From positions 12,512-76,511 of the forward strand of contig JAKANO010000007.1 in the NCBI GenBank assembly GCA_021812385.1: DNA of 64,000 bases. Direction: 5' to 3'. A model generated the notes under the pieces. The model was not told where the DNA came from, did not search any database, and saw only the letters and a program-made list of their open reading frames with translations. Within the stretch, counting starts at the first letter, position 1. Every line of letters begins with the position of its first letter. Below are positions 3,381 through 59,481 of the stretch, one piece after another. A program made the translations under genes and the position numbers. The stretch comes from Pseudomonadota bacterium (lineage in GTDB: Bacteria; Pseudomonadota; Gammaproteobacteria; Burkholderiales; Thiobacteraceae).

Positions 3381-3460
3381 TAACCACGGAGTACACGGAG
3401 TTTTTAGAGAACGGTTTCCTCCGTGTCCTCCGTGTACTCCGTGTCCTCCGTGGTGAAAGG
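3381..3460. repeat. tandem-unit long hairpin element, CACGGAG type (E1)
   Basis: Left arm ccacggagtacacggag (3384-3400). Right arm cctccgtgtcctccgtgtactccgtgtcctccgtgg (3418-3453). Ends in ...ccgtggtgaaagg, the TTTCACC terminus in reverse orientation. Confidence 0.75.
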
Positions 3461-3468
3461 TTTTTACT

Positions 3469-4203
3469 TCAGGCCGCGATATTCGCCGCCACCATCTTGT
3501 TCATCTCGGCCGGGCGCGGCGGGATTTCGCTGGTGAGATAGCGCACGAACTCGTCCTTGTTGTTGATGTGCAGGCCGGTGTTGAAGCGCTTCTCGAAACC
3601 GATGGTGGAAGACGGCTTGCCGGAAATGCCCGCGCCGCACACGCTGCCCGCCTGATGGCCGGGGAAGATTTCGGTTTCGTCCGACAGGGTCAAGAGCTTG
3701 GCGTGCAGGCTGTCGAACAGCATGCCGGCCATGGCCTGCTCGCGTCCGGCCAGATCGGGGCGGCCGATGCTGCCGACGAACAGCGTGTCGCCGGTGATGA
3801 CGAACCACGGCTGTTCGCTGCGGCGCTTGTCGGCCACCGCCAGGCAGATGCTATCCAGGGTGTGGCCCGGCGTGTGCAGCACCTTGATGGCCACGTTGCC
3901 GGCCTCGATCACATCGTTGTCGCGCAGCGCATGGAAGGGAAACTTCACCAAGTCCTGATCGCTTTCGTGCAGGCAATAATCCGCGCCGGCCAGCTTGGCC
4001 AGCGCGCGCCCGCCGGAATAATGGTCGGCATGCACATGGGTGTCGATCACATGGGATATCTTGACGTTGGCTTTCGCCGCTTCTTCGAGGAACCATTCCT
4101 CGTCGCCTGCCACCACATCCACCGCGACCGCCTTGCCCAACGAGCCGCAGCCGAAGAAATAGGATAATGAGGACTCTTTTGTTGCCAGTTGCTTGAAAAA
4201 CAT
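3469..4203 (-). CDS. MBL-fold metallo-hydrolase (persulfide dioxygenase/Blh-like)
   Basis: HxHxDH motif THVHADH. Second ATG (4203) chosen because GGAGG sits 6 nt upstream (ATGGAGGCAACCATG). The ORF-track start is 4215. Confidence 0.8.
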   Translation of the reverse strand: MFFKQLATKESSLSYFFGCGSLGKAVAVDVVAGDEEWFLEEAAKANVKISHVIDTHVHADHYSGGRALAKLAGADYCLHESDQDLVKFPFHALRDNDVIEAGNVAIKVLHTPGHTLDSICLAVADKRRSEQPWFVITGDTLFVGSIGRPDLAGREQAMAGMLFDSLHAKLLTLSDETEIFPGHQAGSVCGAGISGKPSSTIGFEKRFNTGLHINNKDEFVRYLTSEIPPRPAEMNKMVAANIAA

Positions 4204-4360
4204 GGTTGCCTCCATGGCGTTTCAGGTTTGGGAAATGCTGTCCTTAAATCAAGTAATCAAATGAATGCTTGAATAATGGGCCGGAATTTTTCCGTTGTCA
4301 AGAAAAAATCGCGGCGTGGGGCGAGCGCCGGCAGGTGCAGCGTCCAGGGCGCAACGCCTG

Positions 4361-5029
4361 CTATGTCCCCTTCTTGACCGGTAGGCGCGCCGCCTGCCAT
4401 TCCGGGTAGCCTTCTTCCAGGCGGCGCGCGCGATAGCCTTTCTTGCGCAGTTGTTCGACCGCTTCAATGGCGAACAGGCAATAGGGCCCGCGGCAATAGG
4501 CAACGATTTCCTGCTTCTTGGACAGTTTGGAAAGCAGGCGCGGCAGCTTGTCCACGGGCACGTTCAAAGCACCCTCGATGTGGCCGGCTTGAAACTCCGC
4601 CTCCGGGCGCACGTCGAGCACGATTGCTTCCCCTGCGCGCACCAGCTTCAGCAATTCTTCGCGCTTAACCGGCGTCATCTCGTCGCGGCTGGCGAAATTG
4701 TTGCGAATAATCCGCTCCACCTCGGCGGAGTGGCGCTCGGCCACATGACGGATGCTGGCCAGCGCTGCGGGAATCTGGTCGTCGCTCAGACGGTAGATGA
4801 CTTGCAGGCCATCCTTGCGGGAGACCACCAAGCCCGCATCACGCAGCGTTTGCAGATGGTGTGAAGTGTTCGCGGTAGACATGCCGGTGGCGAGCGCCAG
4901 CGCTTCCACGCCGCGTTCGCCCTGGGCCAGCATTTCCAGCAATTCCAAGCGACCCGGGCTGGCCATCGCCTTGGCGACCCGGGCAAAATGTTCGTACAGG
5001 CGTTTTTTGGGAGCAAGTTGAGTAGGCAT
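4361..5029 (-). CDS. ArsR-family transcriptional regulator fused to a rhodanese domain
   Basis: wHTH region LELLEMLAQGERGVEALALATGMSTANTSHHLQTLRDAGLV. C-terminal rhodanese VLDVRPEAEFQAGHIEGALNVP ... AYCRGPYC. ATG at 5029; a TTG at 5041 is an alternative start. Confidence 0.8.
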   Translation of the reverse strand: MPTQLAPKKRLYEHFARVAKAMASPGRLELLEMLAQGERGVEALALATGMSTANTSHHLQTLRDAGLVVSRKDGLQVIYRLSDDQIPAALASIRHVAERHSAEVERIIRNNFASRDEMTPVKREELLKLVRAGEAIVLDVRPEAEFQAGHIEGALNVPVDKLPRLLSKLSKKQEIVAYCRGPYCLFAIEAVEQLRKKGYRARRLEEGYPEWQAARLPVKKGT

Positions 5030-5268
5030 GACAGTATTCAAACAAATACTTTAATAGTTTGCAACTCAAATGATTTCTACGGGGCGAGTGGGTGCGCGCA
5101 GCGCGGGCAATAACGCTATCGCATGTCGTCAATCCTCGGACAAAAGCACGCCTGTAGTGTGTCCGCGATCGAGCGAAAGCGCAAATTCCCCGGCTCCGGT
5201 AAGATTGACGGCGAAGGCAGCAGTGCCGCCATGCTGTATAAGCCGTTTGGATCGAAAATTAGTCGCCC

Positions 5269-57039: not shown

Positions 57040-58221
57040 TTATCCCTTCGCACGTTCTTCCAAAATGGCAACCGCCGGCAATTTCTTGCCTTCGAGGAAT
57101 TCCAGGAAGGCGCCGCCGGCGGTCGAGATATAAGAGACTTTGTCGTAAATGTCGTATTTCTGGATGGCGGCAATGGTGTCGCCGCCGCCCGCCAGGGTGA
57201 AGGCCTTGGTGTTGGCAATCGCCATGGCGATGGCTTTGGTGCCGGCGCCGAATTGATCGAACTCAAACACGCCGACCGGGCCATTCCACACCACGGTGCC
57301 GGCCTGCATGATGATGTCGACCAGCTCTTGCGCGCTCTTCGGGCCGATGTCGAAAATCATGTCGTCGTCGGCGACCGCGCCGGCGTCTTTCAATACCGCG
57401 GGTTCGTTGGCGTCGAATTTCTTGCCGCACACCACATCCACCGCGATGGGGATGGAGGCATTGCGCTTGGACATTTTCTCCATCAGCATTTTTGCGGTGG
57501 GCACTAAATCATCTTCGCACAAGGATTTGCCGACGTTCTTGCCGGTGGCCTTGAGGAAGGTGTTGGCGATGCCGCCGCCCACGACCATTTGGTCGACTTT
57601 TTCCGACAGCGCTTCGAGTACGGTGAGCTTGGTCGAAACTTTGGAACCGCCGACGATGGCGACCATCGGGCGCGCCGGGCTCAGCAGGGCCTTGGTCAGC
57701 GCGTCGAGCTCTTCCGTCAACAGAATGCCGGCGCAGGCCACCGGCGCATATTTGGCGATGCCGTGGGTGGAAGCTTGGGCGCGGTGCGCGGTGCCGAATG
57801 CATCCATCACGAACACGTCGCACAGCTTGGCGTATTTTTGCGCGGTCTCATCGACGTTTTTCTTTTCGCCCTTGTTGATGCGGCAGTTTTCCAGCACCAC
57901 CAGTTCGCCGGCGGCGACATCGAAGCCGCCTTCGACCCAATCCTTGACCAGGCGCACCGGCTTGCCCAAGCGCGCGGCGATGTTGTCAGCCACCGGCTTG
58001 AGCGAGTTTTCTTCCGACCACACCCCTTCTTCCGGGCGGCCCAGGTGCGAAGTCACCATGACTTTGGCGCCTTGTTTCAGGCAATGGTTGATGGTGGCCA
58101 TGGAGGCGGTGATGCGCGCATCGCTGGTGACTTTGCCGTCTTTGACGGGCACGTTGAGATCGGCGCGAATGAACACGCGCTTGCCTTTGAGGTCGAGATC
58201 GACGAGTTTGATAACGGACAT
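57040..58221 (-). CDS. pgk: phosphoglycerate kinase
   Basis: 393 aa, RADLNVP, SHLGRP, GGGDT. Confidence 0.96.
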
Positions 58222-58290
58222 GCTTCTCTCCTGATTTAGATAAGGTGTAAGAGATAGATTGGGGTCTATGTCTTACGCCTCATGGCATTA

Positions 58291-58382
58291 AGGGGTCGGG
58301 CGTCAGGCGACAGGCGTCAGGGGTAGTGCGGGCTGAGCCCGCGTTTTTCCTGACGCCTGAAGCCTGGCGCCCGTCGCCTGAC
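58291..58382. repeat. tandem-unit long hairpin element, GTCAGGC type (E9)
   Basis: ggggtcgggcgtcaggcgacaggcgtcagggg ... cctgacgcctgaagcctggcgcccgtcgcctgac. Hand-folding gives a stem of about 30 bp with few mismatches. The loop holds the mini-hairpin gcgggctgagcccgc. Abuts the gap stop codon. Confidence 0.8.
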
Positions 58383-59381
58383 TTACTTCGCTACGTGCTG
58401 CACCAAGCGCAGCATGTTGCAGGTATAGCCATACTCGTTGTCGTACCAGGACACGACCTTGACGAAGGTGCCGTCCAGCGCGATACCGGCATCGACGTCG
58501 AAGGTGGAAGGTGCGCTGTTGCCAACGAAGTCGGTGGAAACCACTTTTTCTTCGGTGTAACCCAGCACGCCCTTCATTTCGCCTTCAGAGGCAGCCTTCA
58601 TGGCTTTGCAGATGTCGGCGTAAGACGCTTCTTTGTTCAGTTCCACGGTCAGATCGACCACCGACACGTCGGAGGTCGGCACGCGGAAGGCCATACCGGT
58701 CAACTTGCCTTTCAATGCCGGCAACACCACGCCCACGGCCTTGGCAGCGCCAGTGGAAGAGGGAATGATGTTTTCCAGAATGCCGCGGCCGCCGCGCCAG
58801 TCTTTGGCAGACGGGCCGTCAACGGTTTTTTGCGTTGCGGTGGCAGCGTGCACGGTGGTCATCAGGCCGCGCTTGATGCCGAAGTTGTCGTGCAATACTT
58901 TGGCGACCGGCGCCAAGCAGTTGGTGGTGCAGGAAGCGGCGGAGACGATGGCTTGGCCGGCGTAGGTGGTGTGGTTCACGCCGTACACGAACATCGGGGT
59001 GTCGTCTTTGCTTGGTGCGGATTGCACCACTTTCTTCGCGCCCGCTTTGATGTGCGCTTCGCAAGATTCTTTGGTCAGGAAGAAGCCGGTGCAATCGATG
59101 ACGATATCGGCGCCCACTTCGTTCCACTTCAGATTGGCGGGATCGCGCTCGGCCGTCAGGCGGATTTTCTTGCCGTTAACAATCATGTTGCCATTGTCGA
59201 CGGAGATATCGCCATTGAAGCGGCCATGCACGGAATCGTACTTCAGCATGTAGGCCAAGTAGTCTGGGTCGAGCAGGTCGTTGATCGCCACGATCTCGAT
59301 GTCCTTGAAGTCCTTCGCGACAGCGCGGAAGACCATGCGGCCGATGCGGCCGAAACCATTGATACCAACTTTAATTGCCAT
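58383..59381 (-). CDS. gap: type I glyceraldehyde-3-phosphate dehydrogenase
   Basis: 332 aa, INGFGRIGR, active site SCTTNCLAP. Confidence 0.96.
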
Positions 59382-59412
59382 TGTTAATTCTCCAAAGGTA
59401 AAAAACGAAAAC

Positions 59413-59481
59413 TTTCACCGCAGAGACGCAGAGAAAAGCCATTCCAGTTATTCCTCTGCGCCTCTGCGCCTCTGCGGTTCG
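59413..59481. repeat. tandem-unit long hairpin element, CGCAGAG type (E10)
   Basis: tttcaccgcagagacgcagagaaaagcc-attccagttatt-cctctgcgcctctgcgcctctgcggttcg. Fills the tkt-gap gap. Confidence 0.8.

Follow-up and report, generated by a model that had tools for sequence, protein, structure and literature searches.

Ten long hairpin elements (E1 to E10), each made of two inverted arms of 2-4 tandem units of 7-9 nt, occupy intergenic regions of a 64-kb window from a Thiobacteraceae genome (Pseudomonadota; contig JAKANO010000007.1, positions 12,512 to 76,511), a description that E8 matches only in part. By "the window" we mean this whole stretch of 64,000 nt, and coordinates refer to it unless a locus in another genome (L followed by a number) is named. 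We consider it probable, with moderate confidence, that the ten elements are gene-less members, akin to miniature inverted-repeat transposable elements (MITEs), of a cross-phylum superfamily of small palindromic mobile elements, the full-length form of which carries a gene for a GxxExxY protein. Judged by sequence, the link to these GxxExxY elements is direct for the elements of the CRCRGAG type (E1, E2, E4, E5, E10) and for E3, which is of the GCCAAG type. In the case of E6-E9, it is drawn with lower confidence, by analogy, from the shared architecture only.

The gene-carrying form came to light in an all-against-all clustering of 2357 open reading frames (ORFs) from 120 loci near matches to CRCRGAG arms, which yielded no transposase and in which a three-member GxxExxY cluster stood out. 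This 125-aa PD-(D/E)XK ORF (TIGR04256/PF13366, PDDEXK_3) was found in the loop of a tandem-unit hairpin at 15 of 15 loci (L008, L078, L092, L065, L206, L207, L209, L211, L212, L213, L215, L217, L219, L221, L222). The flanking units were CRCRGAG at L092, L065, L213, L215, L217, L219 and L221, and CGCCAAG at L206, L207, L211 and L212. Unit types that had not been searched for were carried by L008, where CACTAAN units with the ends TTGAAC-C...G-GTTAAAA enclose the gene in their loop, and by L078, where CGCGGATNA units surround it. Cultured isolates are represented by Bacteroides finegoldii (L221), in which an element with CRCRGAG arms follows radA, and Sphingomonas parapaucimobilis (L222), in which one with CGCGAAG arms separates fabD from fabG. 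No additional sequence lies at the junctions, where the left arm abuts the GxxExxY start codon and the right arm its stop codon.

Protein clade and unit type go together. The element at L206 reads TTAAAC-C-GCCAAGG... [ORF] ...CCTTGGC-G-GTTAAAA and lies in a cbbQ-cbbO spacer; in its units and ends it is the counterpart of E3 with a gene. Proteins homologous to that of L206 (58-72% identity; Chromatiaceae, Anaerolineae, Acidobacteriota) were in every case flanked by GAAC-C-GCCAAG-type arms, with a GCGAAG variant in Marichromatium (L209), and those homologous to that of L092 (67-77% identity across the examined loci; Opitutales, Gemmataceae and others) always lay between CRCRGAG arms, the two clades being 51% identical to each other. 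Each clade thus keeps its own unit type across phyla, so that arms and gene travel together. Decaying copies were also found. At L160:1640-1915, a cbbM-cbbQ spacer holds a GxxExxY gene truncated at its 5' end and, after it, a right CRCRGAG arm, and at L008:7211-7342 one left unit and the last ~25 GxxExxY codons precede a normal right arm. Both are intermediates that would be expected if hairpin-only forms arise by internal deletion.

The GxxExxY protein keeps the D...E-x-K catalytic motif, and its AlphaFold model (predicted local distance difference test score 96) has a minimal PD-(D/E)XK fold. No relative was found in the PDB by sequence; Foldseek returned generic PD-(D/E)XK proteins such as Cas4, lambda exonuclease and splicing endonuclease. 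Plasmids were considered as vehicles and set aside, as only 7 of 72,556 plasmid records encode a GxxExxY relative, mostly megaplasmids; an E9-type arm gave no convincing plasmid match either. We also observed that GxxExxY elements occupy the same spacer in different genera, namely cbbQ-cbbO in L206, in L207 (Chromatiaceae) and in L209 (Marichromatium), and gatA-gatB in the Opitutales loci L215 and L217 (in L092, only the upstream gene end is seen). These are either old, vertically kept insertions or the outcome of a strong site preference.

An initial annotation, made from the window sequence alone, had described the ten hairpins as one architecture with several unit sub-types, and this description was confirmed in the window. 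Units and positions were correct as given; the palindromes of E1-E5 and E10 extend beyond the limits that had been drawn, reaching outward to an AAAAA...TTTTT pair (A-run left, T-run right), so that each half-element has the layout AAAAA-N6-9-T(T/G)(C/A)AC-C-units. The inverted arms of E1-E7, E9 and E10 were recovered by an unbiased search, among the longest pairs in the window, and Tandem Repeats Finder (TRF) reported periods of 9 nt in the arms of E1, E4 and E5, 8 nt in E2, E3 and E10, and 7 nt in E6-E9. A stricter TRF-based pair detector (at most one consensus mismatch) found only three of the ten elements and was too strict, yet it found L206 and L117. The metagenome-assembled genome (MAG) GCA_027346745.1 matches the window, and the relatives point to a betaproteobacterium of Nitrosomonadales-like affiliation. 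The elements are as follows, with the strand of neighbouring genes in brackets where it is needed.

E1, 3372-3467: CACGGAG-NN units, period 9, 2 left and 4 right; ends GTTAAC-C ... G-GTGAAAG, outer AAAAA/TTTTT; between co-directional genes for a major facilitator superfamily transporter (2040-3353, minus) and a metallo-beta-lactamase-fold protein (3469-4215, minus).
E2, 27831-27971: CGCGGAG/CGCAGAG-N units, period 8, 3 + 3, 47-nt loop; ends TTTCAC-C ... G-GTTCG, outer A7/T6; fills the cbbQ-cbbO spacer of the form II RuBisCO operon.
E3, 28803-28949: CGCCAAG-N(N) units, 3 + 3, 59-nt loop; ends TTGAAC-C ... G-GTTCAA, outer A5/T5; cbbM-cbbQ spacer, downstream of the conserved cbbM terminator hairpin at 28996-29015.
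E4, 31616-31822: CACAGAG-NN units, 3 + 3, structured 117-nt loop; ends GC-CACAGAG...CTCTGTG-GC, outer CCTAAAAAA...TTTTTCTAGG; between convergent LysR-family (30683-31594, plus) and TerC (31853-32815, minus) genes.
E5, 34728-34891: CACGGAG-NN units, 3 + 3, 75-nt loop; ends TTTCAC-C ... G-GTTCAA, outer CCTAAAAA...TTTTTCTAGG; between convergent LysR-family (33836-34726, plus) and UPF0114 (34900-35454, minus) genes.
E6, 38726-38795: GTGAGC-N units, period 7, 3 left and ~2 right; cbbQ-cbbO spacer of the form I RuBisCO operon, 3 nt past the cbbQ stop codon.
E7, 40114-40182: GTCAGGC units against TCCTGAA/TCCCGAA, period 7; cbbL-cbbS spacer, beginning at the cbbL stop codon (40183) and ending 23 nt before the cbbS start (40090).
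E8, 56961-57035: decayed GTGAG-type units, three left and about one right; pgk-pyk spacer.
E9, 58291-58382: GTCAGGC-type units, period 7, 4 + 4, with an inner GC hairpin; gap-pgk spacer, beginning directly at the gap stop codon (58383).
E10, 59400-59481: CGCAGAG-N units, period 8, 2 left and 3 right, 20-nt loop; ends TTTCAC-C ... G-GTTCG; tkt-gap spacer.

The common termini proposed in the initial annotation were borne out, with TTTCAC-C at one side of the window copies and (G/T)(A/C)AAC-C at the other, as was the inward extension of the stem, which corresponds to an A-rich inner flank (GAGAAAA) seen in the window and across phyla. In general form, the outer end TTMAC-C...G-GTKAA is present in E1, E2, E3, E5 and E10; E4 has GC-C...G-GC, and E6-E9 have neither a TTMAC-C end nor a T-run. 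As a lone word, CRCRGAG occurs in the window at chance level (23 and 24 per strand vs 22.6 expected), and all adjacent pairs of the unit lie inside E1, E2, E4, E5 or E10. The loop of E10 resembles that of E2 in shortened form (GAGAAAAGCCATT). Read along the transcribed strand, E7 and E9 start exactly at the TAA stops of cbbL and gap (TAA-(G)TCAGG...), both end in CCCCT(T)AA and share the loop start GGAAAAAC; they appear to form a sub-family with its own conserved ends, distinct from TTMAC-C.

Folding of single strands was compared with 200 dinucleotide-preserving shuffles per element. Nine of the ten elements folded far better than their shuffles, with z-scores of -9.0 (E1), -7.3 (E2), -7.3 (E3), -6.8 (E4), -5.3 (E5), -5.9 (E6), -3.6 (E7), -8.4 (E9) and -4.0 (E10), and 0 of 200 shuffles matched the real sequence in any of them. 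In E7, pairing is confined to the 4-5 bp core CAGG/CCTG of each unit. The fold of E8 is weak (z -2.2; 5/200 shuffles equally good), and its arms are unpaired in the minimum-energy structure, because three GTGAG units on the left face a right arm decayed to about one.

The CRCRGAG arms are by no means peculiar to the window. With one genome per species scanned, the pattern CRCRGAGNNCRCRGAGNNCRCRGAG (three CRCRGAG units at 9-nt spacing) matched at least 120 species-representative stretches, compared with a chance expectation of ~17 by our own arithmetic under uniform base composition. Among the matches listed, more than 10 phyla are represented, including Acidobacteriota, Planctomycetota, Chloroflexota, Verrucomicrobiota, Desulfobacterota, Cyanobacteria, Bacteroidota, Gemmatimonadota and Proteobacteria, and many matches come as plus/minus pairs 20-190 nt apart. 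Five outer-flank bases that the pattern did not specify were nevertheless conserved at 65-82% each across 159 arms, T(103) T(102) A/C(123) A(121) C(131), and this TTMAC consensus equals the termini of E1-E3, E5 and E10. Cultured Gemmatirosa and Bacteroides finegoldii likewise have arms that match E5, and the same hairpins were seen in Nostoc and Microcoleus loci (L009, L040, L053, L121, L124). Genomes with CRCRGAG hairpins also hold hairpins of the same design with quite different units, so the combination of one architecture and different units is a general phenomenon. A Sulfuricella copy (L033:4741-4925) can be aligned with E4 and E5 over the loop (CACCYGNYGGGTRRG) as well as over the outer CCTAAAAA...TTTTTCTAGG flanks, and its neighbouring genes are unrelated to those of E4; this homology at unrelated loci indicates that gene-less copies spread as such.

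Several arrangements of these hairpins were seen in other genomes. At L112:3750-3965, a CACGGGG-unit hairpin is nested inside the loop of CACGGAG/CACAGAG-unit hairpins, and at L219:1400-1640, a gene-less element is stacked directly after a gene-carrying one. In a Pyrinomonadaceae MAG (L023:700-1610), a cluster of tRNA-like genes, with T-arm-like GGTTCGAATCC/GGTTCAAATCC motifs read by eye, has its consecutive genes separated by tandem-unit hairpins of CTGACCA, GTTCAAC/GTTGAAC and GAGTC-type units, which suggests that these hairpins are processing signals between genes.

The association between gene and hairpin could also run the other way: the hairpins would be host RNA-processing or terminator modules, or an independent selfish family, and GxxExxY cassettes would home into their loops, leaving the window elements as unoccupied landing sites. 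Gene-less hairpins do far outnumber gene-carrying ones in the examined loci, hairpins nest and stack as just described, and the shared loop of E4, E5 and the Sulfuricella copy points to spread without the gene. Homing into any hairpin does not, however, predict that the protein clade tracks unit type across phyla, and it fits poorly with arms that abut the start and stop codons without junction sequence and with truncated, internally deleted genes inside otherwise normal arms. We regard this alternative as unlikely and continue with the reading of the hairpins as gene-less members of the GxxExxY elements.

Comparison of orthologous spacers identified E2 and E3 as insertions. We fetched 80 loci encoding CbbQ relatives and read the spacers in the 34 closest. 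In the nearest relative (L127, 98% CbbQ identity), the cbbM-cbbQ and cbbQ-cbbO spacers lack E3 and E2, respectively, as they do in most other relatives, where the former holds only the conserved terminator hairpin and the latter measures 10-30 nt. Between filled and empty spacers the whole 150-nt block differs, with no sign of growth from a resident stem. Other relatives carry different inserts at these two positions, either tandem-unit hairpins with CACGGGG or CRCAGRG units (L133, L153) or, in further relatives, ordinary GTAGG-type palindromes or GGGGAGGG hairpins. The cbb spacers are evidently hot spots for palindromic mobile DNA.

These results bear on the origin favoured by the initial annotation, in which each hairpin arises where it stands, a terminator or attenuator stem being enlarged through replication slippage under selection for structure only, and similar units converge. 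Unequal arms are indeed present, as had been noted (2 vs 4 units in E1, 2 vs 3 in E10), units are more uniform within an arm than between arms (the right arm of E7 is a 100% 14-nt repeat), and slippage-type change in copy number is plausible, given that an intervening sequence in Coxiella has two or three heptamers depending on the strain (PMC4990558). Against it stand the whole-block difference at E2 and E3, the loop homology of E4, E5 and the Sulfuricella copy at unrelated loci, and the conservation in more than 10 phyla of both the CRCRGAG unit and an outer end that was not selected for, which runs counter to the claim of selection for structure rather than sequence.

The pairing of the arms tells the same way. 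In 67 elements with both arms, the variable R positions of the core were Watson-Crick paired in 79% of cases vs 56% expected, the 1-2 nt spacers between heptamer cores in 43% vs 33%, and differences between arms were nearly all transitions. As the spacer bases pair barely above chance, mismatches concentrate there, which accounts for the mismatches that the initial annotation had seen recurring at one position of each unit. Structure-preserving covariation between the arms did not materialise: in 31 elements with mixed units, 86 of 124 unit-by-unit comparisons were Watson-Crick, compared with a mean of 86.0 when units were shuffled within the arm (P = 0.66). The arms have a common unit type, but single units do not compensate each other. 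The constraint is thus on the motif and its inverted arrangement and not on fine-tuned pairing, which the in-place slippage model does not predict. That model was already disfavoured and is, in our judgement, highly improbable.

The placement of the elements is far from even. By Pfam assignments, three minus-strand gene clusters for carbon fixation are involved: a form II RuBisCO operon (cbbM-E3-cbbQ-E2-cbbO, 25524-30421), a form I RuBisCO operon (cbbL-E7-cbbS-cbbQ-E6-cbbO, 36349-41604) and a Calvin-cycle cluster (tkt-E10-gap-E9-pgk-E8-pyk, 55520-61475). E2, E3 and E6-E10 thus lie inside operons, and a tandem-unit hairpin occupies nearly all intercistronic spacers of both RuBisCO operons and of tkt-gap-pgk-pyk. 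The sole exception is the cbbS-cbbQ spacer (39603-39733), in which a small hairpin of the ordinary kind precedes a T-run (39687-39701). Overall, 8/10 elements are intercistronic and 2/10 (E4, E5) separate convergent genes; E7, which had been placed between convergent genes, lies between the co-directional cbbL and cbbS. Every element begins 0-50 nt past a stop codon except E3 (102 nt, just beyond the cbbM terminator). E2 even provides a new stop for cbbQ: the window protein ends in ...TFAV* where relatives have ...TFA*, and the stop overlaps the E2 T-run (27966-27975).

Such clustering in the two RuBisCO operons and the Calvin-cycle genes, together with two LysR genes adjoining E4 and E5 and arms conserved in sequence without fine covariation, would also be compatible with operator- or iteron-like arrays bound as DNA by a carbon-fixation regulator of the LysR/CbbR type, the hairpin potential being incidental. 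We give this explanation almost no credence. The elements follow stop codons, none of the ten lies in a divergent promoter spacer (e.g., cbbR-cbbM, 30422-30682), units that recur every 7, 8 or 9 nt do not keep phase with the helix, and in other phyla the same arrays stand beside unrelated genes (gatA-gatB, fabD-fabG, radA).

A further candidate is provided by repetitive extragenic palindromic (REP) sequences, which are mobilised by a REP-associated tyrosine transposase (RAYT) encoded elsewhere in the genome; the tandem-unit hairpins would then be REPs, or REP doublets forming hairpins (REPINs), of an unusual kind, moved by an IS200-like Y1 transposase. The elements are dense, intergenic and palindromic, follow stop codons and vary in presence among relatives, all as in REPs; true GTAGG-type REPs sit in the same spacers of relatives, and a RAYT flanked by its own REPs was found in L070. 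On the other side, the arms consist of 2-4 tandem units and lack a GTAG-like head with a single short palindrome, and no RAYT is encoded in the window (tblastn best E 1.9). ORFs flanked by tandem-unit arms were always GxxExxY in the 1.27 Mb of examined loci, the one RAYT (L070) having ordinary REPs, and REPs are lineage-specific, whereas the CRCRGAG unit and the TTMAC-C end recur across phyla. A RAYT-driven origin is therefore, in our view, very unlikely. The initial annotation had likewise been unable to place the elements among classical REPs, bacterial interspersed mosaic elements (BIMEs), Correia elements or clustered regularly interspaced short palindromic repeats (CRISPR), and this held. 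No element matched an Rfam family at the gathering threshold in the window, and in E-value mode four related loci gave only sub-threshold, microRNA-precursor-like hairpin noise at the elements.

The L070 locus, from a Planctomycetota MAG, served as the positive control for our flank detector. Its ORF at 662-1195 has the IS200-like HVHLI motif of a RAYT and is flanked by REP hairpins (ATGTGGCACAGCCGCC..GGCTGTGA); the same REPs occur at L070:5459-6028, where the listed ORF is without the HVHLI motif. REP-RAYT and tandem-unit hairpins thus coexist in one genome. In the window itself, another palindrome at 796-885 (CGTAACCCAACAAACCTAATC...GATTTAGTTTGTTGGGTTACG, 32-nt arms, without tandem units) resembles the GTAGG/CCCAACA REP-type hairpins of the relatives L129, L136, L152 and L162.

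Taken as mobile elements of the GxxExxY kind, the hairpins would work as follows. In a full-length member, the outer end (as a rule TTMAC-C) is followed by some three tandem units, a short leader rich in A and G, a PD-(D/E)XK nuclease gene of ~125 codons and then the inverse arm; internal deletion would yield gene-less copies that persist and disperse as whole hairpins. The nuclease may recognise or cut the arms, which would probably be extruded as hairpin or cruciform DNA, and could maintain the element and spread it both in cis and in trans, in the way that RAYT spreads REPs. Tandem units would allow the arms to pair out of register, so that the number of units would drift by slippage, independently in each arm. 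In RNA, by analogy with known hairpins, the elements probably act as RNase III sites or bidirectional terminators: the interrupted stems of 25-35 bp may be processed by RNase III once transcribed, and E1-E5 and E10, with an A-run and a T-run around the stem, may serve as bidirectional terminators or 3'-end stabilisers. In this way, the hairpins could uncouple neighbouring cistrons in cbbL-S-Q-O, cbbM-Q-O and tkt-gap-pgk-pyk. Their position in very highly expressed operons fits a tolerated or co-opted role, and since nearly every spacer between CO2-fixation genes holds one, they are candidate determinants of the stoichiometry of CO2-fixation proteins.

A number of points weigh against this reading and keep our confidence moderate. 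The GTGAGC (E6, E8) and GTCAGGC (E7, E9) types were not seen with the gene in the loci examined, and a six-frame profile search found no GxxExxY gene or remnant in the window, loops included (best E 3.8). The 15 gene-carrying loci stem from two seed proteins and from loci chosen for CRCRGAG arms and are not an unbiased sample. Alignment of filled and empty spacers gave no target-site duplication or exact boundary, the empty sites (L127 and others) being too diverged. The strain-level comparison that the initial annotation had proposed was uninformative on slippage or mobility, as six near-identical contigs with the same CbbQ, 98.9-99.98% identical to the window, carry E2-E5 unchanged, with no polymorphism. 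Co-inheritance of clade and unit is evidence of linkage and not of nuclease action on the arms. PD-(D/E)XK enzymes do not belong to the classical transposases, and the Foldseek matches are weak (best E 8e-4, TM-score ~0.5). Finally, the proposed RNase III and terminator activities are drawn by analogy, and a simple terminator scan is blind to long loops.

A broader proposal, which we put forward only tentatively and consider less likely than its opposite, is that GxxExxY, with its thousands of genes, is the mobility or maintenance enzyme of a cross-phylum class of hairpin transposable elements and recognises its own arms through clade-specific units. The intervening sequences (IVSs) of 23S rRNA and the short tandemly repeated repetitive (STRR) heptamer arrays of cyanobacteria would be special cases or relics of this class, and copies without the gene would have been recruited as RNase III or terminator modules adjusting the ratios between cistrons of highly expressed operons such as RuBisCO. 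If true, this would explain the role of the very large GxxExxY/PDDEXK_3 family, the origin of the 23S rRNA intervening sequences and the tandem heptamers in intergenic DNA of cyanobacteria, Planctomycetes, Acidobacteria and others. It would also add, beside REP-RAYT and IS200/IS605, a third bacterial system of a small palindrome with a dedicated enzyme, one that rests on a restriction-endonuclease-fold protein. On a practical level, the hairpins break short-read assemblies (many GxxExxY genes are on contigs of 1-3 kb), create spurious ORFs and starts, such as the gatB of L215 called from inside the right arm, and rewrite gene ends, such as the cbbQ stop codon in E2.

Some further features of the window were noted. 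A 40-nt inverted repeat without tandem units at 30458-30608 (78% complementary, 71 nt apart), in the spacer between the divergent cbbM and LysR (cbbR-like) genes, may be regulatory. The only Rfam match above threshold is 5_ureB_sRNA (131 bits) at 16954-17239 on the minus strand, antisense within the urease alpha-subunit gene (16807-18501, plus); it may merely mirror conservation of the coding sequence and not mark a small RNA gene. A low-GC stretch at 22000-26000 (0.50-0.53 vs ~0.60), which adjoins cbbO and contains an OLD-family ATPase/TOPRIM nuclease gene (23136-25037, plus), may be a small defence or foreign island, and a second low-GC stretch lies at 44000-46000 (0.50).

Compared with known systems, the family overlaps IVSs, REP-RAYT, MITEs and STRR arrays and fails at least one defining feature of each. 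In build, the family resembles the IVSs. Tandem GACAGAT heptamers, two or three of them according to strain, make up the 28-bp stem of the 23S IVS in Coxiella; its loop encloses a small ORF that is decaying in some strains, and cleavage by RNase III has been mapped to the stem (Warrier et al. 2016, PMC4990558). IVSs, known in Coxiella, Leptospira and Salmonella, are regarded as selfish and possibly mobile (PMC4990558). A stem of tandem heptamers as inverted repeats around a small loop ORF is the build of IVSs, which RNase III excises, and also of a full-length GxxExxY element. IVSs, however, lie inside helices 25 or 45 of 23S rRNA, whereas the window contains no rRNA and all ten elements lie between protein-coding genes, in mRNA spacers. 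IVS cargo is an S23p four-helix-bundle protein, unlike the PD-(D/E)XK nuclease described here and the ORF-less window copies, and neither the TTMAC-C end nor CRC-type units have been reported for IVSs. No other cargo gene, such as a four-helix-bundle protein, was found between arrays in the examined loci, so that the S23p link comes from the Coxiella paper and not from our data.

REPs are single, short and imperfect palindromes with a conserved GTAG head; their partner is a Y1 HUH transposase, and their sequences are species-specific. Like REPs and REPINs with their RAYT (Bertels & Rainey 2011, PMC3116915), the present elements are short, palindromic, dense and intergenic, follow genes, differ in presence among relatives and combine one protein gene flanked by repeats with dispersed repeats that lack it; REPs, too, have been proposed as terminators or mRNA stabilisers. 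The differences are the 2-4 tandem units, the TTMAC-C end, the PD-(D/E)XK partner and units that cross phyla together with their protein clade. With MITEs, they share a length of 70-210 bp, terminal inverted repeats, the lack of a gene, internal deletion of a parent and dispersed homologous copies. In contrast to MITEs, the inverted repeats are themselves tandem arrays, and a parent with a DDE transposase is not known; the parents that share these ends code instead for the PD-(D/E)XK nuclease, with a putative role in mobility. To our knowledge, the only comparable design of tandem arrays as inverted repeats is the eukaryotic Foldback element.

Cyanobacterial STRR arrays and other intergenic heptamer arrays resemble the family in their tandem 7-nt units, the many unit sequences per genome and a patchy spread across phyla. 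They have been described as direct arrays, mostly upstream of start codons, and inverted pairing, a conserved end and a link to a gene are not part of their description; the intergenic TAACTGA heptamers of Beggiatoaceae, for example, are direct repeats (PMC4679880). CRISPR arrays differ in having direct repeats of 24-48 nt with unique spacers of about the same length, whereas contiguous 7-9 nt units here form inverted pairs. Bidirectional terminators come to mind for E1-E5 and E10, whose stems are bracketed by an A-run and a T-run, and for E4 and E5 between convergent genes. Stems of 25-35 bp with loops of 20-117 nt and periodic mismatches are, however, far larger than a terminator needs, the GC stem is set off from the T-run by six to twelve bases that pair weakly, E6-E9 are without a T-run, and E2, E3 and E6-E10 lie inside operons. 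In open-access literature and bioRxiv, we found neither a description of the GxxExxY flanks nor one of a family of inverted tandem-unit hairpins. With the GxxExxY-linked form not previously described in the open-access literature searched, we rate the elements as a new form of a known kind, that of small palindromic mobile elements with a dedicated enzyme.

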